Assembly (NCBI GenBank): GCA_964555305.1
Contig: CAZKSE010000001.1
Location: 2,231-34,230, forward strand
Length of the DNA: 32,000 bases
Direction of reading: 5' to 3'
DNA from: an uncultured Rhodobacter sp.
GTDB lineage: Bacteria; Pseudomonadota; Alphaproteobacteria; Rhodobacterales; Rhodobacteraceae
Position 1 is the first letter of the stretch; each line of letters starts with the position of its first letter. A model generated the notes under the pieces. That model was not told the origin of the DNA and searched no databases. It was given only the letters and a program-made list of their open reading frames with translations. Position numbers and translations under genes: made by a program. Of the stretch, positions 3,467 to 28,480 are shown in pieces.

Positions 3467-3573
3467 ATGCCCCCCGCAATTTTTCCCGCACTATGTGGCC
3501 GTGAAGGTGGAGCCAGAAAATGACCAGTTGGCTGCTCGCCCCTCCGGGTGGGGTTTCTCGCGGCAGGGTTCTG

Positions 3574-4033: not shown

Positions 4034-4104
4034 TGGGATTCTCCCGGTTGGTGATTGAGGTCGCGCCCTGGCGGACGCGACGGGGAAAGGCGCGGGCCAA
4101 ACGG

Positions 4105-4130
4105 TCATCCCGGCCCCAAGGCCGGGATGA
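4105..4130 (-). terminator. Strong GC-rich hairpin between the DJ-1-like gene and gloA (terminator-like)
   Basis: The sequence tcatcccggcc-ccaa-ggccgggatga forms an 11-bp perfect stem with a 4-nt loop. It lies 58 nt downstream of the 4188 stop on the minus strand. The trailing sequence CCGTTTGG gives only a weak U-tract. Confidence 0.35.
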
Positions 4131-4187
4131 GGCGTTCGGTGGCGGTGGGATGAGGAAGACGGCGCGGTTTCATGGCCATCGCGTATG

Positions 4188-4898
4188 TCACGCAGTAGCC
4201 GTTTGCTCTTTCTGGGCGAGGGCTTCGAGCATCTTCTCTGCAACCAGCGCGGCCGAGGCCGGGTTCTGGCCGGTGATCAGTTTGCCATCGCGCACTGCAT
4301 GTCCCTTGAAGTTGTCCGTGCCCTCGAACTTGGCGCCGAGCTCGCGCAGCCGGGATTCGAGCAGGAACGGCATCACCTCAACAAGCCCAACCGCTTGTTC
4401 CTCTGCATCGGTGAAGGCATTGACGCGAAGGCCTTCGACAACAGGCCGACCGTCGGCCCGCCTGGCTGCGACGAGACCGGCGGGGCCGTGGCACACCGCG
4501 CCGATAATTCCGCCCGCGTCGAAGATCTTGCCGACCAGGGTCGCCAGAGCATCGCTCTTGGGGAAATCGAACATCGTTCCGTGGCCGCCGGCAAGGAAGA
4601 TGCCGTCGAAATCGGCCGGAGACACATCGTCGATCCGCGCCGTTTTCGAAAGCAGCGCCATCGCATGACTGTCGACCAGGAAGCGCGCGACGGGCTCAGG
4701 GCGCTCCGATGGATCGTCCTTGACGCTGGAGGGATCGTATTCGGGGTGTCCGCCCTCGATCGAGGCGATCGTGATCTCGTGACCGGCATCGACCAGTGCC
4801 CAATAGGGCGTTGCCATTTCGTCGAAATAGAAGCCGGTCTTCTTTTCGGTGCTGCCGACCTTGGTATGGGACGTCAACACGATCAGAATTCTTGCCAT
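4188..4898 (-). CDS. DJ-1/PfpI-superfamily (class I glutamine amidotransferase-like) protein, possibly a glyoxalase III-type enzyme
   Basis: 236 aa from the ATG at 4898, with an AGAGGA SD upstream. The ORF-track N-terminal extension is not protein-like. It has the nucleophile elbow GAVCHGPAG, IFLAGGHG, and C-terminal LITGQNPAS. Confidence 0.85.
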   Translation of the reverse strand: MARILIVLTSHTKVGSTEKKTGFYFDEMATPYWALVDAGHEITIASIEGGHPEYDPSSVKDDPSERPEPVARFLVDSHAMALLSKTARIDDVSPADFDGIFLAGGHGTMFDFPKSDALATLVGKIFDAGGIIGAVCHGPAGLVAARRADGRPVVEGLRVNAFTDAEEQAVGLVEVMPFLLESRLRELGAKFEGTDNFKGHAVRDGKLITGQNPASAALVAEKMLEALAQKEQTATA

Positions 4899-4955
4899 TG
4901 TGTTATCCTCTGTTTGAGACAGAGGAACAATGCTTGACTTTGGGCCCGTGCGGAA

Positions 4956-4979
4956 ATTGGAAGTCCCGATAGTTCCAAT
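4956..4979. promoter_or_regulatory. Dyad-symmetric candidate operator upstream of the DJ-1-like gene
   Basis: ATTGGAA-N10-TTCCAAT has perfect 7-bp inverted arms. It lies in the 95-nt gap between the stop of the LysR gene (4994) and the start of the DJ-1-like gene (4898). Confidence 0.25.
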
Positions 4980-4993
4980 CGCGCAGACAATGC

Positions 4994-5914
4994 CTATTGC
5001 GACGAGGCGGCAAAGGCCTTGGAAACCTGGGTGCGGAACCATTGCTGTGCAGGATCGCTATCGGCGACCACGCTCCAGGTCATCAGATTCCTGACCGGCG
5101 GAATGTCGACTGGGCATGGATCGATCTCCAGTTGGCCGATGGCCGCCAGTTTCTCGGCGATGAAATCCGGTATCGTCGCTATCATGTCGTTGTCGGGCAG
5201 AACCGCCAGAAGCAACGCGAAGTTGGAAAGACCGATGGCGACGCGTCTGCTCCGGCCCAGGGCCTGCAACTGATCGTCCACAAAGCCGCAGAGGTCCCCC
5301 CTTGGGGTGACGATGGCATGCGGCCGCACGCAGAAGTCGTCGAGATCGGTGACCGGCGGCTGTCGCGCGTCGCGCAGCACAACCCAGCCCGCATTGCGCA
5401 GCACTTTCATCTTGGCGGTGGCCGGAAGGTTCTCCCGCATATACCCTATCGCGGTCGTGATCTGCCCTGCAGCGAGCATATCCGGGAGCGTGCGATAGTC
5501 ACCGATCCGCACAATGAGATCGCAGCCCGGGGCATGTGCCCTCAAGGTTTGCGTCAGGCTTGGCAGGATCGAGAAAGCGACCGCATCCGTGCATCCGAGA
5601 TGGAATTCGCGGGTGTGCAGGGCAGGATCGAAGTCCAGTGTGGTTCCGACGGCGGCCGAGAGCGCCTCGAGATGAGGTTTGGTGAGCCTGACCAGTTCGA
5701 GCGCCTTCGTGGTCGGCTCCAGGGCGCGGCCATTGCGCACCAACAGTTCATCGCCCAGTGTCTCGCGGAGCTTGGCAAGAACACCCGAGACCGTCGATTG
5801 GGCCAGATGTAACCGTCTGGCGGCGCGGACGGTGCTTTTTTCCTCGACCAGAACCACCAGCGCCGACAAGAGGTTCAGATCGAGATTGCCAAGACTTGTA
5901 CGACTGAATGACAT
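4994..5914 (-). CDS. LysR-family transcriptional regulator
   Basis: 306 aa from the ATG at 5914. The wHTH reads LDLNLLSALVVLVEEKSTVRAARRLHLAQSTVSGVLAKLRETLGDELLVR. Confidence 0.9.
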   Translation of the reverse strand: MSFSRTSLGNLDLNLLSALVVLVEEKSTVRAARRLHLAQSTVSGVLAKLRETLGDELLVRNGRALEPTTKALELVRLTKPHLEALSAAVGTTLDFDPALHTREFHLGCTDAVAFSILPSLTQTLRAHAPGCDLIVRIGDYRTLPDMLAAGQITTAIGYMRENLPATAKMKVLRNAGWVVLRDARQPPVTDLDDFCVRPHAIVTPRGDLCGFVDDQLQALGRSRRVAIGLSNFALLLAVLPDNDMIATIPDFIAEKLAAIGQLEIDPCPVDIPPVRNLMTWSVVADSDPAQQWFRTQVSKAFAASSQ

Positions 5915-5940
5915 GGCTTTCCTTGAAGACGAAAGAATGC

Positions 5941-5957
5941 CGGGGATGACATCCCCG
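5941..5957 (-). terminator. Hairpin plus T-rich tail downstream of the cupin-PfpI-HAD operon
   Basis: The sequence cggggat-gac-atccccg forms a 7-bp stem. On the minus strand it is followed by GCATTCTTTCGTCTTC. It lies 77 nt after the HAD stop (6034). Confidence 0.35.
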
Positions 5958-6033
5958 TCTCCAAGTAATAGCACATTGGATTGCAATCAGAATCCCCTTC
6001 GCGGCGTTGTTCTTGCGTCATCGCGGCGGCGGA

Positions 6034-6777
6034 TCAGGAACTGCCAGCCGCCGTCAACTTCGCGACTTCGGAGAGATGGAGCATGCGCACATCGTGCTCC
6101 GCGGCGACCGCAAGGTCCTCCGGACCGTGGTATCCCCATCCCGCCCATTCGACCCGAACGGGAAGATCGCGGGCATCGAGGATGTTCTCGATGCTGTCGT
6201 CGACGAAAATAATGCCTCCGCCGGCCATGTCCGGGTCATGGTTGACGAGGGCCTGAAGGACATGACGCTTGTTCTTGCACGCCCCTTCGATCCTTGAGAC
6301 CTTTTCGTCCAATCCATGAAGCTTCAGGACCGCCTTGATCGACTCGGCATCCTTTGCAGAGACGATCACGATGTCCTGGCCGGCATTGGTGATCAGTTCG
6401 GCGACCTCGGGATGTACGGTGTGCAGCCCGGTCCACTGGTCATATTGCTGGTCACGCCAGTTGCCCCTGACGCGCTCGGCAACCGCTGCCTGGTCCGCGA
6501 GATCGCGCCTGTGCAGATCGCGGGTGCTCTGGAAGAGCGGCCGGTCGATGCTACCGGGGCGTTCATGGAGAAAGTTGGTGACCATGAAATCATCGAGCGT
6601 GCGGCTGTAAGCGCGAACCTGTCTGAAGGTTTCGATGAACGAATGAGGCACCTCGTCGATCGCATCGGGAAGACGGGGTGCTGCCGCACCCCGTCCGAAT
6701 GGTCCCGCATGCCAGGTTACCGCCGCGCATTCCTGCAACGCGTCGGCAACCACGCCGTCGAAATCAAGCGCGAGCAT
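6034..6777 (-). CDS. HAD-superfamily hydrolase
   Basis: 247 aa from the ATG at 6777. HAD motif I is LALDFDGVVAD (DxDxV). The late motif is IIFVDDSIENI (acidic DD). It overlaps the preceding gene by 14 nt. Confidence 0.75.
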   Translation of the reverse strand: MLALDFDGVVADALQECAAVTWHAGPFGRGAAAPRLPDAIDEVPHSFIETFRQVRAYSRTLDDFMVTNFLHERPGSIDRPLFQSTRDLHRRDLADQAAVAERVRGNWRDQQYDQWTGLHTVHPEVAELITNAGQDIVIVSAKDAESIKAVLKLHGLDEKVSRIEGACKNKRHVLQALVNHDPDMAGGGIIFVDDSIENILDARDLPVRVEWAGWGYHGPEDLAVAAEHDVRMLHLSEVAKLTAAGSS

Positions 6778-7336
6778 ATTGCTTCTCCGAGCTGGCCTCG
6801 GCCGCCCTCGCTTCAACGACCTCGAACATCGTCCGCATGAACTTGCCGACATAGGCGTAATAGGAGCAGGTGATGATGTTGCCATCCGTGACGACATCGC
6901 CATCGATGACATTCGCGCCGGCGTTGATCACATCATCGCGCAGGCCGATATAGGCGCAGGCAGTCTTGTCCCGAAGAACACCGGCGCTGACCATAATCCA
7001 GGGGCCATGGCACAGTCCGGCCACCACTTTTCCGGCGGCGTCCATGCCGCGCACGAAATCCAGAACGGGCTTGACCTGGCGAACGCGGTCGGGGGCTTCG
7101 TGACCGCCGGTGAGCACCACGGCGTCGTAGTCGTCAACGGCCAGATCGTCATAGGAGATCAGGGGTTGGGCGGTCTTGTCCATGGGAAGGGGAACCCCGT
7201 ATTTCCCGATGGTTTCACGGCCGTCCTTGGTGGCGACGTCGACCTCCCAGCCCTCTTCGATGAGGCGGTAATAGGTGTAGATGACGTCGTGGTCCTGGAA
7301 GCCTTGCCCGGTGATGATTGCTGCGCGTCTCGACAT
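6764..7336 (-). CDS. DJ-1/PfpI-family protein (PfpI-type intracellular protease/amidase-like)
   Basis: 190 aa from the ATG at 7336. Motifs are VVLTGGHEAP and the nucleophile elbow AGLCHGPW. The length is typical for this family. Confidence 0.85.
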   Translation of the reverse strand: MSRRAAIITGQGFQDHDVIYTYYRLIEEGWEVDVATKDGRETIGKYGVPLPMDKTAQPLISYDDLAVDDYDAVVLTGGHEAPDRVRQVKPVLDFVRGMDAAGKVVAGLCHGPWIMVSAGVLRDKTACAYIGLRDDVINAGANVIDGDVVTDGNIITCSYYAYVGKFMRTMFEVVEARAAEASSEKQYARA

Positions 7337-7370
7337 GAATTTACCTTTCGTCTTTTGAGGGAGGGGAGGA

Positions 7371-8153
7371 TCAGGCGCCGACAGCTTCGACGCAGAGGTA
7401 GTGCGCATCGGTGTCGACGTTCTCTTTCTCGCGCGCCTGATCGCTCAGGATGATCATGTCGTCGGAGAGCAGAGCGTCGATGCCGAGTTTGATCAGGAAC
7501 GCGCCGTCGGCGATGCTGCGATAAAAGACATCCATTCCAGTCCGGATCGAGAACCTGAACTTCCCGCAAGGGGAGACGGGGCAGAAGCTGGCATTGGGAA
7601 ACTGCGGATGGCGCCGACGACCGGCGGGCAACGGAGTGCCCTCGGGCTCGTACTGCTTTGCAGCGCGATCATAGTTGTCGGCCAGCCGCACAAGATCGAA
7701 TTTGTTCCTCGGCGTTTCCACCTCGATCAGCATCAGCGGCTCGGTGCCGTCATCGCATTTCGTCGCGTGAAAGGCGCCTCGGCCGATGCGCAGGATCGTG
7801 CCCTGGCTGATCGGGACCGAATTCTTGAGGTTGGTGCTGACCCCGGAGCCGGAAAGGCACAGGAGATAAGTGGTCTTGCGGGGATGCGCGTGTACGGAGG
7901 TGGACTGCCCCGGATTGATCTGGAGGTGCCAGATGTCGAGGAAGTCGTCCACAAAGGCGCGATATTCCTGCCCCCAGGGCTTGGTGATCAGCCCATTGAG
8001 ATATTCGTCGCGATCCTGCTGCTCGTTTTCGATGCGGATTCCGCTTTTGAGCAGATCGTTCAAGGCGGAGATGTCCTGTCTGGTGGCATCGATACGAATA
8101 GCGGGATCGATGGGGACGGAGGTGGTGTGTCGCGGGGATATTGCCTCAAGCAT
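7371..8153 (-). CDS. Cupin-domain protein
   Basis: 260 aa with an ATG at 8153 and a TGGAG SD. The KPWGQEY motif is followed by PGQSTSVHAHPRKTTYLLCLSG (cupin motif 1, HxH) and GTILRIGRGAFHATK (motif 2). It is the first gene of a three-gene minus-strand operon. Confidence 0.7.
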   Translation of the reverse strand: MLEAISPRHTTSVPIDPAIRIDATRQDISALNDLLKSGIRIENEQQDRDEYLNGLITKPWGQEYRAFVDDFLDIWHLQINPGQSTSVHAHPRKTTYLLCLSGSGVSTNLKNSVPISQGTILRIGRGAFHATKCDDGTEPLMLIEVETPRNKFDLVRLADNYDRAAKQYEPEGTPLPAGRRRHPQFPNASFCPVSPCGKFRFSIRTGMDVFYRSIADGAFLIKLGIDALLSDDMIILSDQAREKENVDTDAHYLCVEAVGA

Positions 8154-16543: not shown

Positions 16544-16858
16544 ATGATTACGTGCCAGGTCAAATATGTGATCGACGCCGACAAGATCGCGGAGTTCGAA
16601 GAGTATTCCAGAATGTGGCTCAAGCTCGTGCCGCGTTTCGGCGGGACGCATCACGGCTATTTCCTGCCGTCGGAAGGCGCGAGCGATATCGCGCTCGCGA
16701 TCTTCAGCTTTCCGAGTTTTGCCGCCTATGAGCAGTACCGAATGGATGCGGCCAGCGATCCCGACGTGCAGAAGGCGGTTGCGTTCGCCAAGGAGACGCG
16801 TTGCTTCCTGCGCTATGATCGGTCGTTCTTCCGACCGCTTCTGTCCGACGCGGCCTGA
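16544..16858 (+). CDS. NIPSNAP-like dimeric alpha/beta-barrel protein (antisense insertion inside the trb cluster)
   Basis: 104 aa, with an AGGAGA SD 7 nt upstream of the ATG. The sequences KIAEFEEYSRMWLKLVPRFGGTHHGYFLPSEG and FPSFAAYEQYR are typical of the NIPSNAP/ABM-like fold. Confidence 0.7.
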   Translation: MITCQVKYVIDADKIAEFEEYSRMWLKLVPRFGGTHHGYFLPSEGASDIALAIFSFPSFAAYEQYRMDAASDPDVQKAVAFAKETRCFLRYDRSFFRPLLSDAA

Positions 16859-17167: not shown

Positions 17168-17496
17168 CAGACCAGCGCCCCGCCGCCGAAGCTGAAGAAG
17201 GACAGGAAGAAGGACGACGCCGCGAAGGCGATGGAGATGCCGAAGACGATCTGGATCAGACGGCGGAAGCCACCGCCAGTATCGCCAAAGGCGAGCGTCA
17301 GGCCGGTGACGATGATGATGATCACCGCGACGATCTTGGCCACAGGCCCTTCGACGGATTCGAGGATGGATTGCAGCGGTGCTTCCCAGGGCATGGAGGA
17401 ACCGGAGGCGAAAGCGGGCGCGGTCATCAGGCTTGCCCAGGTGAATGCGGCGGCGGTTGCCACATGATGGCGGATACGGAAGGCGCGACGGATCAT
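17167..17496 (-). CDS. trbC: Pilin precursor TrbC (VirB2 family)
   Basis: 109 aa with a long signal peptide, two hydrophobic helices and a Gly-rich C-terminus. ATGA overlap with trbB. Confidence 0.9.
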   Translation of the reverse strand: MIRRAFRIRHHVATAAAFTWASLMTAPAFASGSSMPWEAPLQSILESVEGPVAKIVAVIIIIVTGLTLAFGDTGGGFRRLIQIVFGISIAFAASSFFLSFFSFGGGALV

Positions 17497-18491
17497 GCAG
17501 AATCTCCTGAGTCGTGAGTGGTGGTCAGTTCTGAAAAGGCAGGGAAAATCCGGTAATCGCCGTCCGGGCCAAGCCCTTCGACACGGGCGAGTTCGGTGAG
17601 ACGCCGGGCGGAACCGCGGCCGGTGAGGACGGCCACGAGGTCGATGGTCTCCGCGATCATGGCGCGCGGGACGGTGACGACGGCTTCCTGGATGAGTTGT
17701 TCAAGGCGGCGCAGCGCGCCGATAGCGGAACCGGCATGGATCGTGCCGATGCCGCCCGGATGGCCGGTGCCCCAGGCTTTCAGAAGGTCGAGGGCTTCCG
17801 CGCCGCGCACCTCACCGATGGGGATGCGGTCTGGGCGCAAGCGCAGCGACGACCGCACCAGCTCCGACAAGGTGGCGACACCGTCCTTGGTCCGCATGGC
17901 GACGAGGTTGGGCGCGGCGCATTGCAGTTCGCGCGTGTCCTCGATGATGACGACGCGATCGGAGGTCTTCGCCACCTCGGCGAGCAGTGCGTTGGTAAGC
18001 GTTGTCTTGTCGGTCGACGTGCCACCGGCAACAAGGATGTTGGCACGGGCTTGGACGGCCGCGCGCAGCGTTTCCGCTTGGTCGGCGGTCATGATGCCGG
18101 TCGTTACATAGTCGTCGAGCGTGAACACCGCGACGGCGGGCTTGCGGATGGCGAAGGCCGGTGCCGCGACCACCGGAGGCAACAACCCCTCGAACCGCTC
18201 GCCGGTTTCCGGCAATTCCGCCGAAACGCGGGGGCTGCGGGCATGGACCTCGACACCGACATGGTGGGCAACCAACCGCACAATGCGTTCGCCATCGGCG
18301 ACGGACAGGCGTTCGCCCGTATCGGCCAGACCTTCGGACAGCCGATCCACCCAGATACGGCCGTCCGGGTTCAACATCACCTCGACCACCGCCGGGTCTT
18401 CCAGCAAATGCGCGATAGCGGCGCCGAGTGCGGTGCGCAGCATGCGCGCGCCGCGGTCCACATTTGCCTGTTTGTGGTTGATGCCTGCCAT
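17493..18491 (-). CDS. trbB: P-type conjugative transfer ATPase TrbB (VirB11 family), with an atypical Walker A
   Basis: 332 aa. Motifs are [30 protein letters not shown] (Walker B), [17 protein letters not shown] and [11 protein letters not shown]. Walker A reads GGTSTDKTT, with Asp161 (GAC, 18009-18011) where Gly is expected. Confidence 0.92.
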
Positions 18492-18984
18492 CTCGTCCCC
18501 GTTCCACCGGGGAGGCGAGAGAAAAACCCCGGATGGGGATGACTAAAAGAGACCCAAAAGGGGCCGATTCAACAAGTTTCGGTCGTAGTAGTAGTGTGGC
18601 GTGCAAATACAGGAGAACGGCGGGGACCATGTCCCGCCTCCAAGGTTTGAGCGCCCCTGCGCAACCACTCGTTGATTCGATTGGCCCGCTGGACTGACAA
18701 CTTTCGGGATACGCCGGAGACTGGCTACGCATGCGCGACCTGCGTTTGCAACTGCAGCTACCCCGACGTGGAGGCAAGGAAGGGTCGTTCGCGGCGACCA
18801 CAAAGACATTCAACTGCCTTCGGTTGAGTGGTCCTTGAAGCATAGAGCTGCCCCGAGCTTCGACCAGACGCCGTAATCGCGAAAGCGCGGTAGAGCAGAA
18901 CGTCGGTCTTGAACGTGCGATCACACAAGGGCAATCTCGTCGCGATCGAGAGCATGAGAGCAAGTATTCGGGGGTTATTTTTTC

Positions 18985-21003
18985 ATGACTTCGCTACGCC
19001 CAAACCTTGTAAAGCGAATTGAACGCCTGCCCAAACCGACAAATGTAGCTGGAGCCATGCAGCCACTTTTTGAAGCGGTGAGCAATGCCATCCATTCGAC
19101 ACAGTCGCGGTATGGCGATCGTGTGGCGAGCGAAGGGCGTGTCATCGTCACTGTCAACACCAGCAGAAACAAGCAGGACGTCTGGGCAACCGTGGAAGAT
19201 AATGGCGTAGGTCTTGATGATGACAATTGGGATGCGTTCACGACCACGGACACCGACAACAAGATTCAGATCGGCGGCAAGGGTGTCGGCAGGCTAATGT
19301 GGCTGGACTGTTTCGAGGAGATAAGCGTCAACTCAGTTTTCAGGAACAAAGACGGCGGACTTCAGGGGCGGAAGTTTAAGTTCAAGCTTGCGCTGGAAGA
19401 TCAGATTCAGGACCTTGAAGAAGGTGCAGCACCGGATGCTTCCGACAGCGTTTTCCACGTCCGGCTATCAGGCCTCCGCGACAATGGATACCGCGCCAAA
19501 TTTCCCGGTCGCGACAGCTTTGTTTTTCAACACCTCACTTCACACTTCCTGCCAACCTTCATCGGAGGCCGGAGCCCGCAAGTGAGCGTTCATGTGCGTG
19601 ACGAGACTCGCGAGTATCCGAACGCCATCTCTGACATTGTTCACAGGCAGGACAAAGCGATGGCCATCCAAACAGAGGAGTACGGCGATCTGAACCTGAC
19701 CCTGATGGAGTGCGACAAGGTTGCGAGCGCTGACCTCAAAGGGAGGCATTTCGTCCACTTCATTGCGCATGACAGGACGGTCCATTCGCAGAGCATCGAC
19801 GGCAAACTTGGCCTTAGCTATTTCGGCGAAAATAACGACAGGGTGTTCCACGCCATCGTAACCGGTGAGTTCCTGGACACTAATGTCAACCAGGAGCGAA
19901 CGGCATTCATTTTTGAGGACGCTGTGATTGAAAGGATCATCAATGACGTCTGCTCCGAGAGAATTGAAGCGTTCCTATCGGTGCCACTAGCCCTTCTGAA
20001 AGGTGAGCAGCGTGGAACCATAGAGACGATCACTGCAACATATCCTTCTGTTGCGTTTGGGGATGTGGACGAGCTGCAAAAACGCGTCCCTTCAGGGGAA
20101 CTGAAAGCAGATGCGATCTATGGGCATCTCTCCCGTGAACGCTTCCGCCGTGACGAACGACAGGCTGAAAAAATCAGGAGCGTCCTGAATAGGCTCAAAG
20201 AGGGTGTCGCAGACATTAGCACGTTCAGCGCGGCAATCGCCGACGCCAGCACAGCAATAGAAGAGGCGGAGCAGAGGAGTCTTGCTGAGTATATTGTCCG
20301 CCGCAAGGTCGTGCTGGATTTCATCGAAGTCCTTCTTGAGAAGGTCCGTGACGACACCCGCGACAGCTCCTACCAGCGGGAGGACATACTGCACTCGTTC
20401 ATCTGCCCGCTTCGCGTCAGGACCATCGATGGAGGCGGCAGCAAGGTAGAACCTGCAGCGTCACATGACCTATGGATAGTCGATGAGAGGCTGACATTCG
20501 CACAGTACTTCAGCTCTGATGTTGAGTTCCGGAAGCTGTCGGAGGCCGTTGAAAGCGATGAGCGCCCGGATGTCCTGATCTTCGACTATGTGCACGGCCT
20601 GCGGCAGACCGATGAGCCGTCAAAAGTCCTTCTCATTGAATTCAAGCGCCCAGGGCGAACGAATTATACAGAGGAAGAGAACCCGCAATTTCAGGTGGAG
20701 CGTTACGTCAAGCGTCTCCAGAGCGGCGAGCTCTCGGACGTTCGGGGGCGCCCAATAGCGCTGGACCGCAACACGATATTCTACTGCTACATTGTTGCTG
20801 ACATTGTTGGGAAGATGGACACGTGGACGTTCTCGTGGCAGCGAACGGCAGATGGCCGGGGAAGGGTCTACCGGCCCAACAGCGGGTTCCATGGCTCAAT
20901 TGAACTGCTCGGGTGGGATCAACTCATTGGAGATGCCAGAGCACGGAACCAAGCATTCTTCGACCGCGCCGGAATTTCCGGGAACAGCTTCTTCACAACC
21001 TGA
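18985..21003 (+). CDS. Fusion protein: GHKL (Bergerat-fold) ATPase plus a C-terminal RecB-like PD-(D/E)xK nuclease
   Basis: 672 aa. N box is E30-AVS-N34-A (19072-19089). G1 box is D72-N-G-V-G (19198-19212). G2 box is G97-G-K-G-V-G102. The C-terminus has RPD529VLIF, LLIE552-F-K554 and Q570-VER-Y574 (QxxxY), spanning nt 20569-20706. Confidence 0.75.
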   Translation: MTSLRPNLVKRIERLPKPTNVAGAMQPLFEAVSNAIHSTQSRYGDRVASEGRVIVTVNTSRNKQDVWATVEDNGVGLDDDNWDAFTTTDTDNKIQIGGKGVGRLMWLDCFEEISVNSVFRNKDGGLQGRKFKFKLALEDQIQDLEEGAAPDASDSVFHVRLSGLRDNGYRAKFPGRDSFVFQHLTSHFLPTFIGGRSPQVSVHVRDETREYPNAISDIVHRQDKAMAIQTEEYGDLNLTLMECDKVASADLKGRHFVHFIAHDRTVHSQSIDGKLGLSYFGENNDRVFHAIVTGEFLDTNVNQERTAFIFEDAVIERIINDVCSERIEAFLSVPLALLKGEQRGTIETITATYPSVAFGDVDELQKRVPSGELKADAIYGHLSRERFRRDERQAEKIRSVLNRLKEGVADISTFSAAIADASTAIEEAEQRSLAEYIVRRKVVLDFIEVLLEKVRDDTRDSSYQREDILHSFICPLRVRTIDGGGSKVEPAASHDLWIVDERLTFAQYFSSDVEFRKLSEAVESDERPDVLIFDYVHGLRQTDEPSKVLLIEFKRPGRTNYTEEENPQFQVERYVKRLQSGELSDVRGRPIALDRNTIFYCYIVADIVGKMDTWTFSWQRTADGRGRVYRPNSGFHGSIELLGWDQLIGDARARNQAFFDRAGISGNSFFTT

Positions 21004-21044
21004 GTGGCGTCGATAACTCGTCAATATTATGCGCAGGACGATTG

Positions 21045-22400
21045 CTACCAGTATATGGCCACGACCTCCACATCCAAGAGGCTGACATCATCCTCACTGA
21101 TATGGGCGGCGGTGGGCACTGATGCGGAAGGTGCTCCATGCTCCGGTGCAGGCAGATAAGCCAGATCGCTCAAAGAGCGCGCCCGATTGCGGAATTCCAG
21201 ATCCTTCTCCGCACCTATTCTGAATCGCCCGAAGCGCCTTACCTTTTTACCCACCATGTCAAACGCATTCCTCTGGCCCTGTGGGGACGCCATCAGAGGT
21301 GCCGCGCCAAGTATCTCGGCTTCGATCTCCAAGTCCTGGTCTGGCGTAAGGGCCTTCCCAGAATGAGCCAGCAAAAGCTGGCGGTACGTTCGCAGGGCTC
21401 TTGTCAACGCGTTTTCCAGTTGGAGGTGCGATTGAGGCACCGGCTTGGCGCTGAGCGCATATGTTCCCGCAAGGTTTATCTGGTGCAGAAGGTCCGGGGC
21501 GACATCGCGGAACAGGTCCGCCAGCTTCACGGGTGTCCAAGTCTGTTGTAGGCCGTCGCGGGAAACCCTGCAAAGGATGGTGAACTCCGCCTCAGAGAAC
21601 AGGACTCTACGAATGTCCTTCCAATAGGCGAGGTGTTCGGTGACGCCCACGATCGTCAAAGGGCGAACAGGGAGATCGGCGTCTCGAACTGCGTCCTTGT
21701 GCACCACGAAGTCCTCGCCATCCAGGTTGACGACAACCCGATCCACTGCTTCGGCCCGGATAGGAATGAGACCGGCGAGCAGGCGGGTGAGTATCTTGTT
21801 CATCGGCTCTGCGTTCTCGAGCGCGCCGGACCATCCATCGGGGGAGTATTTGTTCGGGAAGTCTTCCGCGATGCTCATGAATTCTGAAAGCATAGTGCCC
21901 ATGTGGAATACCGGGTCGGCCGCCAATCGCACCTTCAGTTCAATCAGTTTCCCGCGCAGGAGGTTCGAAGCCGGAGTTGCCATAGACGGATCCTGAGACC
22001 GCCTGATCGACGCGGCGTCCATAGCGGCAACATCGGTCACGACGCTGATAAGACGAAGGTTCGCTTTACCGTGTAGCTCGCGGAACCAGGACTGCACCGT
22101 GGCCTTGCGCGAGGTCTGGAAAGTACTGCTGTTGGCCGTTTGAAAGCGAGAGGCGAGTTCCGCCTTGCCTATCAAGGCATTTTCGATGCCGGCGACGGTA
22201 CTGGTCTCGACTTCATACCCGTCAATGGACTGGTGCGAAGTGCCTTCGGTCATACCATCGGCCTGCGAAGAGAGCAGGCTTCGAAGACTGACCTCGTCCA
22301 AGTAAACGAACTCACGGAGCGGTCCCCCACTGTTCGGCTTCCGAGGCGCAGGCTTCGGCGCTTTCCTGAACCAGCGCTTCACCCATCCCACGATGCTCAT
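21045..22400 (-). CDS. Hypothetical 451-aa protein, translationally coupled to the upstream AAA+ ATPase
   Basis: The ATG at 22400 overlaps the AAA+ stop as ATGA, and an AGGAGG SD lies 8 nt upstream. It has a basic N-terminus (WVKRWFRKAPKPAPRKP) followed by REFVYLDEVSLRSLLSSQ. I could identify no catalytic motif. Confidence 0.7.
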   Translation of the reverse strand: MSIVGWVKRWFRKAPKPAPRKPNSGGPLREFVYLDEVSLRSLLSSQADGMTEGTSHQSIDGYEVETSTVAGIENALIGKAELASRFQTANSSTFQTSRKATVQSWFRELHGKANLRLISVVTDVAAMDAASIRRSQDPSMATPASNLLRGKLIELKVRLAADPVFHMGTMLSEFMSIAEDFPNKYSPDGWSGALENAEPMNKILTRLLAGLIPIRAEAVDRVVVNLDGEDFVVHKDAVRDADLPVRPLTIVGVTEHLAYWKDIRRVLFSEAEFTILCRVSRDGLQQTWTPVKLADLFRDVAPDLLHQINLAGTYALSAKPVPQSHLQLENALTRALRTYRQLLLAHSGKALTPDQDLEIEAEILGAAPLMASPQGQRNAFDMVGKKVRRFGRFRIGAEKDLEFRNRARSLSDLAYLPAPEHGAPSASVPTAAHISEDDVSLLDVEVVAIYW

Positions 22401-23635
22401 TCGTGCGCCTCCTGGGAACTCCGACTGGGTCGGCTGGATACCCGCTCAAATGCTTGCGCCAAGTCTTCGCCCTCTATCTTGCCCCGGCGATCACCTGCCG
22501 CAACCAATGCGGCCTCCGCCCACAGGGCCCCTAGTTGAGCCGCGGACCAACCCTCGGTTGCTTGAGCCACCTCGCTCAGGGGCAGATCGACGGCCACGTT
22601 GAGGCCTCGCGTCGCTACTTTCAAGATTGCCAGTCGATCGGAAACGTCAGGCATGCCGAATTCGATCTCCCAATCGAAACGCCCGGGACGCGTCAGGGCC
22701 GGGTCCAACGCCTCAACTCGATTGGTGGCCGCGATGACGACTACCGATCTACCCTGGTCATCAAAACCATCCATGAGCGTGAGCAGCTGCGCCACTAGCC
22801 GCTTGGAGGCTTCGTGGGTGTCGCCTGTACGCCGCTCCGCAATGCTGTCTATCTCGTCGAAGAAAACGATCGCGCGACCCGAACGACTTTCTCGTGCGGC
22901 ATCGAATATGCGGCGCAGGATGTCTTCTGTCTCCCCCAGCCACTTGCTGACCACGGAGGGCCCGCTCACGAGGTAGAAATCGGCCTTCGACTCGTGCGCG
23001 ATAATCCTCGCCAAGTGCGTTTTCCCCGTACCGGGCGGGCCGCTGAAGAGCACGCCCTTGACTGGACGCGCCTTAATCTGGTCGAGGTGTCGGCGTCGCT
23101 TGAACTGGGTCTCGATGAGTTCTCGCGCTCGTTTAATCACGTCGGGGTACCCGCCGAAATCAGCAAATGTCGGCCCATCGGACGCTGCGGCAACGAAATA
23201 GTCGTCCGGTCCCTGATCGCTATCTTGGGAGAAACGGCGACTGCGCAGCGGCGTCTGGGACAGGACGCGAATAACCCCCTCCGCGTCGTTGTATTCTATT
23301 GCGTTGTCGGTCTCGACCTTGACCTTCCCGGGGTTCCGAAGAGTCCGGATCCCAAATCCGTCGTCGATGAGCACGGTTCCACCTTCGATCACCTGCCGCA
23401 CGGTTGCGACCGAATTGCTGGCGGCCCAGACCTCTGCAGGAGCAATTTGCCAACCGCCATTGCCCACCAGAATGACATCACCTCGCTCGGGGAGATCATG
23501 GCGAAAGCCGGAGACGCGCAATACTCGGCCGTCCAGCGATCGCGCGTGCAGGACGCCGTTGTCTTCATCGACATGCAACACCTTGAGCAGCATGCCCGCC
23601 ATGGCTTCCAAATCGTCGTCAGCACCTATGCTCAT
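22397..23635 (-). CDS. Classic-clade AAA+ ATPase (Cdc48/FtsH-like single AAA module) with a ~190-aa N-terminal domain
   Basis: 412 aa from the ATG at 23635. Walker A is GPPGTGKT (23018-23041). The pore loop is K-W-L-G. Walker B is IVFFDEID. Sensor 1 is IAATN. The second region of homology is ALDPALTRPGRFD. The 72-aa upstream GTG extension in the ORF track is W/R-rich and was rejected. Confidence 0.85.
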   Translation of the reverse strand: MSIGADDDLEAMAGMLLKVLHVDEDNGVLHARSLDGRVLRVSGFRHDLPERGDVILVGNGGWQIAPAEVWAASNSVATVRQVIEGGTVLIDDGFGIRTLRNPGKVKVETDNAIEYNDAEGVIRVLSQTPLRSRRFSQDSDQGPDDYFVAAASDGPTFADFGGYPDVIKRARELIETQFKRRRHLDQIKARPVKGVLFSGPPGTGKTHLARIIAHESKADFYLVSGPSVVSKWLGETEDILRRIFDAARESRSGRAIVFFDEIDSIAERRTGDTHEASKRLVAQLLTLMDGFDDQGRSVVVIAATNRVEALDPALTRPGRFDWEIEFGMPDVSDRLAILKVATRGLNVAVDLPLSEVAQATEGWSAAQLGALWAEAALVAAGDRRGKIEGEDLAQAFERVSSRPSRSSQEAHE

Positions 23636-23813
23636 CGCGTACCGTCCAAAACAACGGTGTCGATTCCCTGATACACGCTGAACGCACTGGTGGACCTGTC
23701 CGACACTGTCGAGCTTCCGTTTCCAGGAGGTGCCTTCCGCAACAAAAAGGCGGAGTCCGTCTCGCAAGTCTCGCCGAAAATGGTACCATATCTGAACACC
23801 GCCATGTAGAAGA

Positions 23814-24293
23814 TCACGTTCCCTCCACCGTCGGACGATCCATAGCCTCACAGCCTCTTGGCGAAGCGATCCGTGTACCGTGCATGCATAACGCTATCGC
23901 TGCCGCGGATCGGAGACCAACGTGTGAACCGCCGCGGCACTGCGATGGCAACATCGCTCGATCGCTTGACACGGCACATCTCTGCGGCGTTTGCGTCGAA
24001 CTCGAAGTAGGTCGCTGGATTTTTGCAATCTTCCGATTCTCATCGGGCATTGTATTCGGCGCCCCCCTATAGTCTTCACTATATGCATGCGCCAAACCGG
24101 GCGCACTAGATCGAAGCAAGCGCACCACCGATGCGTGCTTTTCCGCCGGGGTAGTTTGAGCTTGAATCTCAGCAATTCGATCTTTCAGGCTACAGTGGTC
24201 CAATAGAACATCAAGATCAACTTTCGACAAGTCATTCAATGCCTTGTGGATTTCTCGAGCCGTCCTGATTGAATTGCGCTCAAACTGCGCCAA
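23814..24293 (-). CDS. Doubtful small ORF (helical N-terminal ~80 aa, low-quality C-terminal half)
   Basis: It has only a TTG start, 3 nt after and in frame with the copG stop, and a weak SD. The first ~80 aa (AQFERNSIRTAREIHKALNDLSKVDLDVLLDHCSLKDRIAEIQAQTTPAEKHASVVRLLRSS) look like a real helical domain. The remainder is Ser/Arg/Cys-rich. Confidence 0.3.
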   Translation of the reverse strand: MAQFERNSIRTAREIHKALNDLSKVDLDVLLDHCSLKDRIAEIQAQTTPAEKHASVVRLLRSSAPGLAHAYSEDYRGAPNTMPDENRKIAKIQRPTSSSTQTPQRCAVSSDRAMLPSQCRGGSHVGLRSAAAIALCMHGTRIASPRGCEAMDRPTVEGT

Positions 24294-24296
24294 TGT

Positions 24297-24725
24297 TCAT
24301 TGGCCCGCGCCCTCCACATCCTCCGAGACTTCCTGCCGAAGCTTCGGCCCCTGCGCAAGGCGTCGGCCGAGCGCGGCGATGAAGGCTTCGTAGCGCTCGC
24401 CGGCTTTGGCGCGCGCAGCCTGAGCGGTGGGCTCGGGCAAGGCCGGCGTGGTCGTGAGCCAGAAGCGGATGAACACAGCGAGGCTTTCGACGGCGATGCC
24501 GAGATCGCGCTCCAGGCGCGTCATGCGGCGATCAATTTGGTCGAGACGTCTGCCAATAACCGCCTCCCGGCGCTCCGCATCGTCGGGCGACAGGAACGAG
24601 GCGATGGCGGCTTCCACGATCATCGATTGCGACTGATCCCGGCGCGCCGCGAACTCCGCCAGTGCTTTCTCGACGTCCGGGTCCAGATAGGCCGTCACTT
24701 TTTTCTTCTTACGAGGATTGGTCAT
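24297..24725 (-). CDS. Ribbon-helix-helix (CopG-family) regulator of the transfer region
   Basis: 142 aa from the ATG at 24725. The RHH signature is KKKVTAYLDPDVEKALAEFAARRDQSQSMIVEAAIASFL. It starts 4 nt after the traG stop. Confidence 0.8.
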   Translation of the reverse strand: MTNPRKKKKVTAYLDPDVEKALAEFAARRDQSQSMIVEAAIASFLSPDDAERREAVIGRRLDQIDRRMTRLERDLGIAVESLAVFIRFWLTTTPALPEPTAQAARAKAGERYEAFIAALGRRLAQGPKLRQEVSEDVEGAGQ

Positions 24726-24729
24726 GACG

Positions 24730-26715
24730 CTACAGGTCCATGCCGTCATTGGGGTCCATCGCAACCTGACGCGCGATGCCCTGGGCGTGGCGGATCATGC
24801 GGCGATTTCGGATGGCGTCCTCGTCGGCGTCGTCCGGCAGCCCGGCCTCGAACTCGTTTTCGATGGGCATCTTCTTCTCCACCGGCTTCGCGCGGCTGAG
24901 TTCGGGTTGCAGCCGGCGCTCGGATTCGGTTGGATCTTCATCTTCGATCGGATGTTCGGGCGATGCTTCGGAGCGCTCCGGCCGTGCCGGGATCGGGAGC
25001 GCTGTCCAGTCATCGGGTCGGCCTTTATCTGGTTGCTTTAACTCCGGTGGCGGCATCAGGCGCTCGGTGAAACGCCCATCCTCATAGTAGCGCGCCTTTT
25101 TCGCCCGGATCGGCGGGATACCGGCGACCATGACGATCTCGTCGTCGGGGGGAAGCTGCATGATCTCGCCCGGTGTGAGCAATTGGCGGGCGGTTTCCGA
25201 ACGCGACACCATGAGATGCCCAAGCCAGGGCGACAGCCGGTGCCCGGCATAGTTCTTCATCGCCTTCATCTCGGTTGCTGTGCCGAGGGCGTCGGAGACG
25301 CGCTTGGCGGTGCGCTCGTCATTGGTGGCAAAGCTCACCCGGACATGGCAATTGTCGAGGATCGAATTGTTCGGTCCGTAAGCTTTCTCGATCTGGTTCA
25401 GCGACTGCGCGATCAGGAAGCTCTTGAGGCCATAGCCCGCCATGAAGGCCAAGGCTGTCTCGAAGAAATCCAGCCGCCCGAGCGCGGGGAACTCGTCCAG
25501 CATCAACAGCAGCCGATGCCGGTCGGTCTTGGCCTGAAGATCCTCGGTCAGGCGACGGCCGACCTGATTGAGCAGCAATCGCATCAATGGCTTGGTTCGG
25601 TTGATGTCGGATGGCGGCACGACGAGGTAGAGCGTGGTCGGCTGATCACCCCCCACGATGTCGCTGATGCGCCAGTCGCAGCGACGTGTCACCTCGGCGA
25701 CCACCGGGTCACGATAGAGGCCGAGGAACGACATGGCTGTCGACAACACGCCGGAACGTTCATTGTCGGACTTGTTGCGCAGCTCGCGCGCCGCGCTGGC
25801 GACGACAGGATGCGGCCCCGCTTCGCCCAGATGCGGGGTTTTCATCATGGCGCGCAGGGTGGATTCGACAGGGCGCCTGGGATCGGAAAGGAACTTGGCG
25901 ACGCCCGCCAGCGTCTTGTCCGGTTCGGCGTAGAGCACATGCAGGATCGCGCCGACGAGAAGCGCGTGAGAGGTCTTTTCCCAGTGATTGCGCTTGTCGA
26001 GGCTCCCTTCGGGATCGACGAGGATATCGGCAATGTTCTGAACGTCGCGCACCTCCCATTCGCCACGCCGCACCTCGAGCAGCGGATTGTAGGCCGAGGA
26101 GTTCGGGTTGGTCGGATCGAAGAGCAGCACCCGGCCATGGCGGGACCGGAAGCCGGAGGTGAGCTGCCAGTTCTCGCCCTTGATGTCATGGACGATGGCC
26201 GAGCCCGGCCAGGTCAGAAGCGAGGGGACAACAAGGCCGACCCCTTTGCCGGATCGCGTCGGCGCGAAGCACAGCACATGCTCCGGCCCATCGTGGCGAA
26301 GGTACTCCTGCTCGTAGCGGCCGAGCACCACGCCGTCGGGATCGAGCAGGCCCGCGGCCTTGATTTCGGGTTTTTCCGCCCACCGCGCCGAGCCATAGGT
26401 GGCGACGTTCTTCGCCTCGCGCGCCCGCCAGACCGACATGCCGATGGCCACGGCAATAGCAATGAAGCCGCCCGACGCCGCGATGATCCCGCCTGTGGCG
26501 AAGATCGGCGGCGCATAGGCTTCATAGAAATACCACCACCAGAAGATCGCGGGTGGGTAATAGACCGGAATGCCGAGGAGTTCGAACCAGGGCGGCCCGA
26601 GCTGCGCCTGAAACCCGAGGCTCCAGGCGACATATTGTGTCGCCCCCCAGGTGGTGGCGAGGATGATGAGAAAGACGATGGTGATCTGGCCCCAGAGGAT
26701 CTTGGTCGCGGACAT
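24730..26715 (-). CDS. traG: Type IV coupling protein TraG (VirD4 family)
   Basis: 661 aa from the ATG at 26715, with an AAAGGAAC SD. It has two N-terminal TM helices. Walker A-like is FAPTRSGKGVGLVVPSLL and Walker B-like is LLMLDEFPALG. Confidence 0.93.
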   Translation of the reverse strand: MSATKILWGQITIVFLIILATTWGATQYVAWSLGFQAQLGPPWFELLGIPVYYPPAIFWWWYFYEAYAPPIFATGGIIAASGGFIAIAVAIGMSVWRAREAKNVATYGSARWAEKPEIKAAGLLDPDGVVLGRYEQEYLRHDGPEHVLCFAPTRSGKGVGLVVPSLLTWPGSAIVHDIKGENWQLTSGFRSRHGRVLLFDPTNPNSSAYNPLLEVRRGEWEVRDVQNIADILVDPEGSLDKRNHWEKTSHALLVGAILHVLYAEPDKTLAGVAKFLSDPRRPVESTLRAMMKTPHLGEAGPHPVVASAARELRNKSDNERSGVLSTAMSFLGLYRDPVVAEVTRRCDWRISDIVGGDQPTTLYLVVPPSDINRTKPLMRLLLNQVGRRLTEDLQAKTDRHRLLLMLDEFPALGRLDFFETALAFMAGYGLKSFLIAQSLNQIEKAYGPNNSILDNCHVRVSFATNDERTAKRVSDALGTATEMKAMKNYAGHRLSPWLGHLMVSRSETARQLLTPGEIMQLPPDDEIVMVAGIPPIRAKKARYYEDGRFTERLMPPPELKQPDKGRPDDWTALPIPARPERSEASPEHPIEDEDPTESERRLQPELSRAKPVEKKMPIENEFEAGLPDDADEDAIRNRRMIRHAQGIARQVAMDPNDGMDL

Positions 26716-26740: not shown

Positions 26741-28480
26741 CTAGAGGCCGAGGCCGCGCTTGCGCCCGAAACCCCAATCGACACCGCCATCGTCGCGGGC
26801 GACGCCGGAGACGTGGCGGCCGATCTGTTTCTCGAGTGAGGGCGACCAGGGCACGAGCTGGAAGCCGAGCCCGTCGTCGATCATGGCGAAGCGCCCCGAG
26901 GCGAGCCCGAGGCGCTGGCGATAGGTGCCGGAAACATAGTCGCCGCCGCCGGCGCGGTTGAACGGCAGGCCGGTCTCAGTGGCCAGCTTCTCGCCGAGGG
27001 CATTGACCTCGCGATCGCGCAGTGTGTTGAGCAACCGGCGCGCGAAGACGACGCGCCCACCCTGGCGTTCGGCGAGACCCTCGCCAATGAGATGCTCCGC
27101 GCGCTGATCCAGCGCCTGACGGACCTCGGCGCCGAAGCCGCTGTCTGACAGCGCAATGGACTCGCGGGCGATGGCCTGCCGGTCGAGCCAGGTCGCGCCT
27201 GTGGCGCCCACCTGTGCGCCAAGATCGAGATCGGAGCGGACGGCGAGTGCGACGCGGCGCGCACCCCGTGCGTCCTCATAGGCGCGCAGCTCGACGATCG
27301 AACCCGGCGGGCTGTCTCCGGCGGCATCGAGATGCGGCAGCTTGATGTGATGGGTGCGGCCATCGACACCATCGACGACCGCATAGGCGGTGCCTTTCAG
27401 CTCATCATCGAGGCCGCGCTCCATCAGGCGGCCAATGACGGGCACCTCGAGGCTTTCACTGGCCAGGACATAGCTCGCCGAGCCGCGCTCGATGCCGCGT
27501 TCGGTCAAGGCGCGGTGCATGCGCTTGATAATGTCGCCGCGCTCGCCCAACTCGCGCAGGACCGTTTCCGCCTCGGGCTTGATGAACCATTGGGATTGGC
27601 CGATCTGTCCGGCGAGGCCGAGGATCTCCAGTTTGCGCAGTCGGCCGACTTTCAGCGTATGGAACGCGTCCGGCTGGTGGTCGGCGAGTGGTGCCAGATC
27701 GAGGATGCCGGATTTGCCGGCATCACGAACGAGCTGCCGGTCGAGCTGGGTCCAGCGTTCGGCGTCGATCTGGGCCTCGATGGCGCGGTGGATATCGAGA
27801 TCGGTGCGTGGCCCCAGCTCCAGGGTGACGAGATCGCGCGCCCGGTCGCGCATCCCCTCCTTGATGTAGTCGCGGGAGATCACGAGGTCCTGGCCATCGT
27901 CGCGCGCACCGCGCAGGATCAGATGGACATGGGGATGCGCGGTGTTCCAGTGATCGACCGCGACCCAGTCGAGCCGGGTGCCGAGATCCTTCTCCATCTG
28001 CCCGACCAGATCGCGGGTGAAGGATCGCAGGTCGGACATTTCTGGCGCGTCGTCCGGGGAAACGATAAATCGGAAATGATGCCGGTCGTCACCGCAGCGC
28101 TCGGCGAAGGCTCGGCCATCCACATCCTCCGTTCCCGGTCCGAACAGCCGCGCCTTCTCCCCGTCACGGGTCACGCCCTCGCGGCGCAGATAGTCGAGAT
28201 GGGTTCGAAGCGGTGCGGAGCGCGCGCTGTGGCGGACCACGCGCGCCTTGACGACGGCGCCGCGCGTACGGGAGGTGATGAAGCGATTGGCCTGGATGCT
28301 GGCCCGCTGGCCGCGCCCGAAGCGGGATCGGTTGCCGGAGGCGACGCGGCCGGATCGCGAGACGCCGCCGCCTGCCTTCTTCGCCGCGGCGAGCGCCTGC
28401 GCGATGAAGGGACGGGCAGCCTGCGCGCGGGTCGAACGGATGCGCCCCGGACGGATGCGGAACTCGTGCTCATAGGACAT
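26741..28480 (-). CDS. Relaxase/mobilisation nuclease (VirD2-like, with a long C-terminal DUF3363-type extension)
   Basis: 579 aa from the ATG at 28480. The histidine-triad motif is VAVDHWNTAHPHVHLILRG. Its position upstream of traG fits. Confidence 0.88.
   Translation of the reverse strand: MSYEHEFRIRPGRIRSTRAQAARPFIAQALAAAKKAGGGVSRSGRVASGNRSRFGRGQRASIQANRFITSRTRGAVVKARVVRHSARSAPLRTHLDYLRREGVTRDGEKARLFGPGTEDVDGRAFAERCGDDRHHFRFIVSPDDAPEMSDLRSFTRDLVGQMEKDLGTRLDWVAVDHWNTAHPHVHLILRGARDDGQDLVISRDYIKEGMRDRARDLVTLELGPRTDLDIHRAIEAQIDAERWTQLDRQLVRDAGKSGILDLAPLADHQPDAFHTLKVGRLRKLEILGLAGQIGQSQWFIKPEAETVLRELGERGDIIKRMHRALTERGIERGSASYVLASESLEVPVIGRLMERGLDDELKGTAYAVVDGVDGRTHHIKLPHLDAAGDSPPGSIVELRAYEDARGARRVALAVRSDLDLGAQVGATGATWLDRQAIARESIALSDSGFGAEVRQALDQRAEHLIGEGLAERQGGRVVFARRLLNTLRDREVNALGEKLATETGLPFNRAGGGDYVSGTYRQRLGLASGRFAMIDDGLGFQLVPWSPSLEKQIGRHVSGVARDDGGVDWGFGRKRGLGL

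Follow-up and report, generated by a model that had tools for sequence, protein, structure and literature searches.

What kind of DNA separates copG from trbB in the conjugation operon of an alphaproteobacterial mobile element, and do the genes that it carries work as one system or as several? The question arises from a contig of an uncultured Rhodobacter sp. (CAZKSE010000001.1), of which a stretch of 32,000 nucleotides (nt), hereafter the window, was analysed. An initial annotation had singled out a lower-GC island at this place as one candidate defence or conflict locus, as yet uncharacterised. According to our results, the island is foreign DNA of 5,673 base pairs (bp) with three solid genes, encoding a protein of 672 amino acids (aa) that joins a GHKL ATPase to a nuclease, a 451-aa protein of the Pfam family DUF6414 and a 412-aa AAA ATPase. 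These genes belong to two independent modules, i.e., the GHKL-nuclease gene on the one hand and an AAA-DUF6414 operon on the other hand, and not to one system. Taken as a whole, the island is likely to be accessory cargo in a recurrent slot of the conjugative element, where it carries two unrelated and self-contained conflict modules working along the lines proposed below; a role in defence or conflict, as first suggested, is also the best reading after our analysis.

The limits of the island were determined by blastn comparison with five related elements. Homology to all five backbones stops at positions 18622–18623 of the window and picks up again at 24314–24319, within the last codons of copG, the right edge and the copG stop thus agreeing to about 20 nt. 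At this edge (24296), the GC content changes sharply, from 0.45 in the 100 bp to the left to 0.69 in the 100 bp to the right, so that both the right limit and the abrupt turn to AT-rich sequence reported earlier were recovered. In contrast, the left limit has to be moved from 18492 to 18624, because homology to the relatives runs through the 132 bp located 5' of trbB; this segment (18492–18623) is conserved backbone in all five related elements and probably holds the promoter, operator or control region of trbB or of the trb genes. Between the revised limits, the GC content is 0.571, compared to 0.656 from trbI to trbB and 0.660 from copG to the end of the window, while the GC content at third codon positions (GC3) is 0.64–0.69 in the island genes and 0.77–0.80 in trbB, copG, traG and trbE, which confirms the compositional contrast on which the island was first recognised. 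The same island, identical and within the same element, occurs on four contigs from several independent metagenome samples. As in the initial annotation, neither an integrase nor a transposase was found in the island, and its flanks show no meaningful repeats, the terminal direct and inverted matches being short and at chance level. A transposon or an integron-like cassette was rejected on these grounds, to which one may add that homology around the GHKL gene ends at the ends of the open reading frame (ORF).

The backbone itself is of P-type (Trb) and reads, on the minus strand, traI-traG-copG-trbB-trbC-trbD-trbE and onwards, based on Pfam matches and gene calls. A megablast search against plasmids retrieved elements of Paracoccus, Agrobacterium, Shinella, Rhodopseudomonas and Mesorhizobium with 77–85% DNA identity to this backbone, and the island is absent from all the plasmid elements in which the backbone matched. 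In the five relatives used for the breakpoints, the site between copG and trbB is interrupted at the same nucleotides, being empty in two of them (76 bp between the homology blocks in P. versutus pBEN and 59 bp in Rhodopseudomonas pBAL398.1) and occupied by other cargo in three: a Fic gene with a UPF0149/SEC-C gene in P. saliphilus, a single gene for a 428-aa protein without Pfam match in A. vitis, and 4.8 kb encoding two LysR regulators, a Nuo51-like protein and an unknown protein in Paracoccus aminovorans. The synteny comparison suggested at the outset has therefore revealed both shared breakpoints and alternative cargo at one hotspot. Since this cargo includes LysR regulators and a Nuo51-like gene, the slot is a general cargo hotspot and not one reserved for defence. 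The same comparison bears on the idea that the island genes take part in transfer or in its regulation, which might be entertained from their position between copG and trbB and from the fact that two of them lie on the strand of the tra and trb genes. This idea is scarcely tenable: the relatives lack the island genes, some of them being typed as conjugative with only the 59–76 bp mentioned above at the site, and no island protein matched a conjugation family in Pfam, PADLOC or NCBIfam, in agreement with the earlier description of the cargo as devoid of transfer genes.

To delimit the modules of this cargo, one genome per species was scanned with an alignment of DUF6414 proteins, which yielded 80 loci spanning Alpha- and Betaproteobacteria, Actinomycetota, Chloroflexota, Ignavibacteria and Terriglobia. 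In all 80 of them, the DUF6414 gene is immediately preceded, on its own strand, by a homologue of the AAA gene, and in none was there a homologue of the GHKL gene or of the small additional ORF of the island. Alphaproteobacterial homologues of the GHKL gene, for their part, are solitary in the seven genomic contexts inspected, and the AAA-DUF6414 pair is absent from every GHKL context examined, including restriction-modification (R-M) loci and plasmid pTiA6. In the island, the GHKL gene is convergent to the AAA-DUF6414 operon, an orientation that fits two independent units. The view of the initial annotation that these genes form one locus in the functional sense, i.e., an integrated system of three components, would have in its favour that they are adjacent both here and on the identical metagenome contigs; with a co-occurrence of 0/80 and a convergent arrangement, we have rejected it as highly improbable. 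What did hold is the coupling of the AAA gene to the gene for the 451-aa protein: the stop of the former overlaps the start of the latter by 4 nt, in addition to the invariable pairing.

Regarding the first module, the 672-aa protein consists of a GHKL ATPase domain (about residues 1–200), a transducer domain (about 200–330), long helices (375–456) and a nuclease domain (about 460–672), so that the fusion of a GHKL ATPase to a RecB-like nuclease was correctly recognised from the start. Pfam HATPase_c matches residues 25–105 above its cut-off (E = 1.3e-6), and 55 sequences, with identities down to 25%, all share the GHKL motifs (N34, D72xGxG76 and G100xG102) without variation. In the same 55 sequences, the nuclease residues E466, H470, D529, E552xK554 and Q570 are also invariant, while Y574 is found in 53. 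The AlphaFold model (mean predicted local distance difference test, pLDDT, of 83.6) shows the GHKL fold, a second alpha/beta domain and two very long helices (375–456), followed by an alpha-beta-beta-beta-alpha-beta unit in which the acidic and lysine residues sit on the expected strands and the QxxxY motif on the next helix, a secondary-structure order that fits the PD-(D/E)xK core. Foldseek aligned the first 360–450 residues with Hsp90/TRAP1, the N-terminal domain of MutL (LN40), GyrB 43K and SMCHD1 (E-values of 1e-9 to 1e-12). As for the nuclease domain, a profile search against PDB sequences returned nothing, and three to five of the 55 family members weakly match HSDR_N, HSDR_N_2 or Uma2 in Pfam. 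An exhaustive search of cluster representatives retrieved 2,316 clusters at E ≤ 1e-3 and 709 at E ≤ 1e-30; among the best 150 clusters, most are listed at about 650–700 aa and match the whole query, so the architecture is fixed.

This architecture was described in 2008 by Iyer, Abhiman and Aravind under the name paraMORC3, for proteins in which a GHKL and an S5 domain precede a RecB-family nuclease, located at the C-terminus and marked by an E-D-ExK motif (PMC2292703). Point by point, the 672-aa protein corresponds to that description and is of paraMORC3 type, with a GHKL domain bearing the ATP-binding motifs, an S5-like transducer behind it (covered by the Foldseek alignments of 360–450 columns), a nuclease with the right motifs and order of secondary structures, and a gene that stands alone in Proteobacteria, without conserved neighbourhood in the contexts inspected. 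The class Shedu type I-D is reportedly also treated by Gu et al. (2025). VcSduA, a protein of Vibrio cholerae, was assigned to this class (PMC12137116; bioRxiv 10.1101/2023.08.10.552793), and its protection against T1-like phages, which does not entail death of the host, was shown in 2025; in this protein, a PD-(D/E)xK nuclease comes after a GHKL domain, such proteins having been "previously annotated as paraMORC3", and its mutants E27A and K557A lose phage protection (PMC12137116). A full-length homologue from V. fluvialis aligns end to end with our protein (28% identity, E = 3e-66), and residues E30 and K554 of the latter are equivalent to E27 and K556 of the V. fluvialis homologue, VcSduA having its E27 and K557 at almost the same positions (PMC12137116). 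From this homologue and these positions, we place VcSduA, by inference, in the same family. By analogy with VcSduA, the GHKL and transducer domains would form an ATP-driven dimeric clamp that gates or licenses the RecB-type nuclease, which would then cut invading DNA. The architecture, the fold and the catalytic motifs that this scheme calls for are present in the protein.

The places in which genes of the wider GHKL-nuclease family are found speak for a role in conflict. On pTiA6 (L101, 3301–16010), a homologue is found among VapBC, PIN, TIR and peptidase genes, in a region that has the appearance of a defence island, left unannotated on this classical plasmid. An IncC plasmid of V. fluvialis (L097, 2625–6019) carries a type I R-M locus with the order hsdM-hsdS-canonical Shedu-GHKL, and a mobilisable island of V. 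cholerae inserted at trmE (L106, 119–10071), with MobI and an integrase, has the order hsdR-AAA_15-hsdM-hsdS-GHKL-RhuM. Among phages, tblastn found a single match, in vB_RanS_PJN03 (ON245412.1, 40028–41836; 22% identity, 89% coverage), which falls under a gene annotated as N-acetylmuramoyl-L-alanine amidase.

In the second module, the 451-aa protein matches Pfam DUF6414 (PF19952) with an E-value of 3.8e-50, the 283 positions of the model being spread over residues 28–450, and has no other match in profile searches of NCBIfam, PADLOC and PDB sequences; none of the matches was to a peptidase family. The 724 homologues detected are patchily distributed over Actinomycetota, Proteobacteria, Chloroflexota and haloarchaeal plasmids, no phage-borne homologue was found, and since the pair is found on haloarchaeal plasmids, it crosses the boundary between Bacteria and Archaea. 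One such plasmid, PHS3 of Halobacterium salinarum (L098, 2125–4550), bears an overlapping AAA and DUF6414 operon beside an integrase. The model of the DUF6414 protein (pLDDT 72.8) combines an alpha/beta domain with a helical bundle. Residues 84–107 (window 22082–22151) include 11 invariant positions (SRFQTxNSSTxQTSRKATVQSWF) and are predicted to be disordered (pLDDT below 50); the AAA partner may bind or thread the protein at this segment. The AAA ATPase has its best NCBIfam matches in CDC48, PAN and FtsH, and its best PADLOC match in IetA (E = 1.5e-36), over the AAA module only (residues 171–399), while NCBIfam IteA gives 103 bits for a cut-off of 510. Its Walker A (GPPGTGKT), Walker B (FFDEID), pore-loop K-W-L-G, sensor 1 (ATN) and two arginine fingers are conserved in 60 orthologues, in which the first 150 residues or so are variable. 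In sequence terms, such a set of motifs is the signature of a predicted hexameric unfoldase that threads its substrates, the recognition domain being the part that diversifies.

The surroundings of this pair were surveyed through the 119 ORFs nearest to it in the 80 loci, by counting matches to defence models at E ≤ 1e-10. These matches include GajB, type III and type IV restriction endonucleases, a CBASS cyclase and its effector, Old, AbiEi, HamB, AriA and MkoC. In Pfam, the neighbours match YgjP, Mrr_cat, integrases and HTH_3 regulators, next to ordinary genes. Contigs of Mycobacteroides type show the order HsdR-AAA_13-AAA-DUF6414, and a Novosphingobium plasmid has the pair beside NTase-HEPN and RelE/ParE genes. 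Plasmids also bring up the question of whether the pair is mainly an addiction module, stabilising its element by post-segregational killing and not primarily directed against phages. IetAS is said to associate the AAA ATPase IetA with a subtilisin-like protease, IetS, according to Gao et al. in 2020 and Yamamoto et al. in 2009. Later literature presents it as first described as a plasmid-stability toxin-antitoxin pair of pTiC58 (PMC13069673, citing Yamamoto 2009); its AAA ATPase plays the antitoxin against the partner, and inactivating this ATPase proved impossible (PMC13069673). Our pair likewise resides on a mobile element, and elsewhere on plasmids and next to integrases. Yet, most of the 80 loci are chromosomal, and several lie in clear defence islands beside R-M, Gabija, CBASS or Hachiman genes. 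A predominantly addictive function is consequently rather unlikely in our view, even if the alternative is live and the two roles are compatible.

Under the preferred reading of the pair as a conflict module, the DUF6414 protein would act as effector or toxin. Its control, or the sensing, would fall to the hexameric AAA ATPase, in an ATP-dependent manner, and recognition to the variable N-terminal domain of the ATPase. Infection or loss of the element would release a growth-arresting activity, resulting in abortive infection or in an arrest of toxin-antitoxin type, a logic already reported in the case of IetAS and assumed in that of Dodola. We observed the obligate pairing, the coupling, the intact unfoldase motifs and the defence-rich neighbourhoods; the direction of control and the chemistry of the effector are guesses. 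A bolder proposal, to which we give slightly less than even weight, is that operons of a classical AAA ATPase and a long DUF6414 protein constitute a distinct conflict system, widespread in Bacteria and Archaea and missed by current defence-finding models, in which a PAN/Cdc48-like unfoldase controls an effector whose fold has no solved or viral relative, its mode of action being unlike any characterised one. If so, control could be exerted by threading the segment 84–107 of the DUF6414 protein.

A number of results weigh against seeing conflict modules in these genes. For the second module, Foldseek searches of PDB and BFVD with the DUF6414 model returned nothing below E = 0.1, and no catalytic motif can be recognised in the protein. 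The survey of neighbours also turned up many housekeeping genes, its figures being raw counts without a background rate. Dodola is reportedly a system of Millman et al., from 2022. It comprises DolA, a DUF6414 protein, and DolB, a ClpB-like ATPase (10.1101/2024.10.26.620412), and protects B. subtilis against SPP1 by an unknown mechanism (PMC11514479). The DolA model of PADLOC misses the DUF6414 protein of the window, and matches only weakly 5 of 32 diverse members of the family (best E-value of 5e-4), whereas the ATPase of the window shows no match to DolB even at E ≤ 10; the weak matches and the shared Pfam family suggest a relationship to DolA, if a remote one. For the first module, Pfam SduA_C (DUF4263) matches none of the 55 family members at E ≤ 1, nor the V. 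fluvialis homologue, when the canonical Shedu gene adjoining the latter is matched at 1.3e-25, and the Shedu models of PADLOC also match none of the 55. A Shedu label for the family would thus be a matter of architecture and of structure-based claims in the literature. Furthermore, more than 120 clusters are 72–92% identical to the GHKL protein of the window across several alphaproteobacterial orders, a conservation that is not typical of fast-evolving defence genes, and close homologues lie alone amid housekeeping genes, e.g., mutS, ilvBN and sarcosine oxidase genes.

These last two observations would also be expected if the GHKL-nuclease were a housekeeping enzyme of DNA repair or chromosome maintenance, MutL-like or MORC-like, instead of an immune nuclease, and Iyer et al. 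did raise the possibility of a role independent of R-M for standalone paraMORC3 genes (PMC2292703). We nonetheless hold this to be improbable. The gene occupies a different location in every genome examined and its DNA homology ends exactly at the ORF ends, which points to repeated horizontal acquisition rather than to vertical descent; it is found on 55 plasmids, of which 29 are conjugative; homologues are part of type I R-M loci and, on pTiA6, of a defence-like region; and VcSduA is a validated defence protein (PMC12137116).

The coordinates of the island, its genes and its flanks are collected in Table 1. The initial annotation counted four ORFs in the island, three of which are solid. For the AAA gene, the start was moved to the ATG at 23635, since gene callers disregard the additional upstream codons of the maximal ORF (484 aa). 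The fourth ORF (159 aa, 23814–24293) was rejected as a gene: it is not called on the four identical contigs and has no family match, tblastn found nothing like it in plasmids or among the 80 related loci, and its GC3 reaches only 0.525. The whole interval between the AAA gene and copG was treated as a non-coding spacer and is probably the regulatory region of the AAA-DUF6414 module itself. Searches for expression signals were negative: no Rfam match at E ≤ 0.1 in the island, no fold better than in shuffled sequence for a terminator between the convergent genes (z = -0.23), no minus-strand terminator-like site within the 661-bp spacer between copG and the AAA gene, and sigma-70-type promoter matches no commoner in the island than in shuffled sequence.

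Table 1. The cargo island, its genes and the adjoining backbone, in window positions.
Feature	Position	Strand	Basis
traI (DUF3363 relaxase)	26741-28480	-	Pfam, gene calls
traG	24730-26715	-	Pfam, gene calls
copG-like ribbon-helix-helix gene, 142 aa; backbone, right flank	24297-24725	-	Pfam RHH_1, Antitox_RHH; gene call on identical contig
Cargo island	18624-24296	.	blastn breakpoints against five relatives; composition; identical on four metagenome contigs
AT-rich spacer, 661 bp, GC 0.543 (last 100 bp 0.45)	23636-24296	-	holds the doubtful 159-aa ORF
Classical-clade AAA ATPase, 412 aa, predicted unfoldase	22397-23635	-	Pfam AAA 7e-42, AAA_lid_3
DUF6414 protein, 451 aa, presumed effector	21045-22400	-	Pfam PF19952, full model
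GHKL-nuclease protein, 672 aa	18985-21003	+	Pfam HATPase_c, invariant motifs, AlphaFold model, Foldseek
C-terminal RecB-type nuclease domain, aa 458-672	20356-21000	+	E-D-ExK and QxxxY motifs on model
Conserved backbone segment upstream of trbB	18492-18623	-	homology to all five relatives
trbB (T2SSE ATPase); backbone, left flank	17493-18491	-	Pfam T2SSE 5e-35

Elsewhere in the window, a gene for a 104-aa protein of the NIPSNAP family (16544–16858, plus strand) lies by itself between trbD and trbE, on the strand opposite to theirs, in a local dip of the GC content to 0.59, and is also present on one of the identical metagenome contigs; the trb operon seems to have received here a second, small insert. 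Past trbI (2552–8153, minus strand) lies more cargo, encoding two LysR regulators and glyoxalase-fold, DJ-1/PfpI, HAD hydrolase and cupin proteins. The first 2,400 positions of the window, with a GC content of 0.485 compared to 0.58–0.69 from about 2500 onward, contain genes for a radical-SAM/B12-binding protein (8–1411) and a homoserine O-succinyltransferase (1429–2358), and are probably host DNA or another island, in which case the element would end near 2400–2500. No tRNA gene was found in the window.

Altogether, the island is ordinary hotspot cargo, in which the GHKL gene joins a family with a validated member and the AAA-DUF6414 pair is a candidate variant of the Dodola theme with an ATPase of a different class. 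The label "uncharacterised" given to the locus has to be narrowed: it no longer fits the GHKL part, on account of paraMORC3 in 2008 and VcSduA in 2025, nor quite the other part, DUF6414 being the Pfam family of DolA. The copG-trbB slot is of interest as a site where conflict genes and other cargo are swapped, and it offers an anchor for finding further cargo. The GHKL-nuclease, ordinary as a gene, extends a family with one validated member (VcSduA) by a very large and unusually conserved alphaproteobacterial clade, which carries no defence label in either Pfam or PADLOC. The AAA-DUF6414 pair is the more useful lead, with its hundreds of clusters in several phyla and on haloarchaeal plasmids, its strict pairing, its invisibility to PADLOC as far as DUF6414 is concerned and a presumed effector whose fold found no counterpart in PDB or BFVD. 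It is a reasonable candidate for experiment, one among many, whose study would also inform the mechanism of Dodola.

Finally, the island can be set against the systems and sites that it resembles most. As in the cargo hotspots of other conjugative elements, variable genes occupy a single fixed intergenic position and leave the transfer region intact; here, the slot begins directly behind the copG stop and is followed by the probable trbB control region, which has been retained, so that what sets it apart from other such hotspots is its location in the copG-trbB intergenic region of an alphaproteobacterial element of the traI-traG-copG-trbB type. With VcSduA and paraMORC3, the GHKL-nuclease shares an N-terminal GHKL domain with all ATP motifs, a transducer that is S5-like or similar to the middle domain of Hsp90, a RecB-type E-D-ExK nuclease, a length of about 670 aa, a stand-alone proteobacterial gene and catalytic glutamate and lysine residues at nearly the same positions. 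It differs in being only about 28% identical to the nearest Vibrio homologue compared, and the phage data belong to VcSduA of V. cholerae, the alphaproteobacterial clade being known here from its sequences. Like Dodola, the second module is a two-gene operon of an AAA+ ATPase (an N-terminal domain and a single AAA module) and a DUF6414 protein, frequent in defence-rich neighbourhoods. Unlike DolB, however, its ATPase is a classical-clade AAA protein (PAN/Cdc48/FtsH/IetA-like, with AAA_lid_3) and not ClpB-like, and its DUF6414 protein is a chain of about 450 aa over which the Pfam model has to be stretched. The likeness to IetAS lies in a classical AAA ATPase whose gene precedes that of one partner, to which it is coupled, on alphaproteobacterial mobile elements, with IetA as the best PADLOC match of the ATPase; the resemblance to IetA is limited to the generic AAA module, and the partner is a DUF6414 protein instead of the serine protease IetS.

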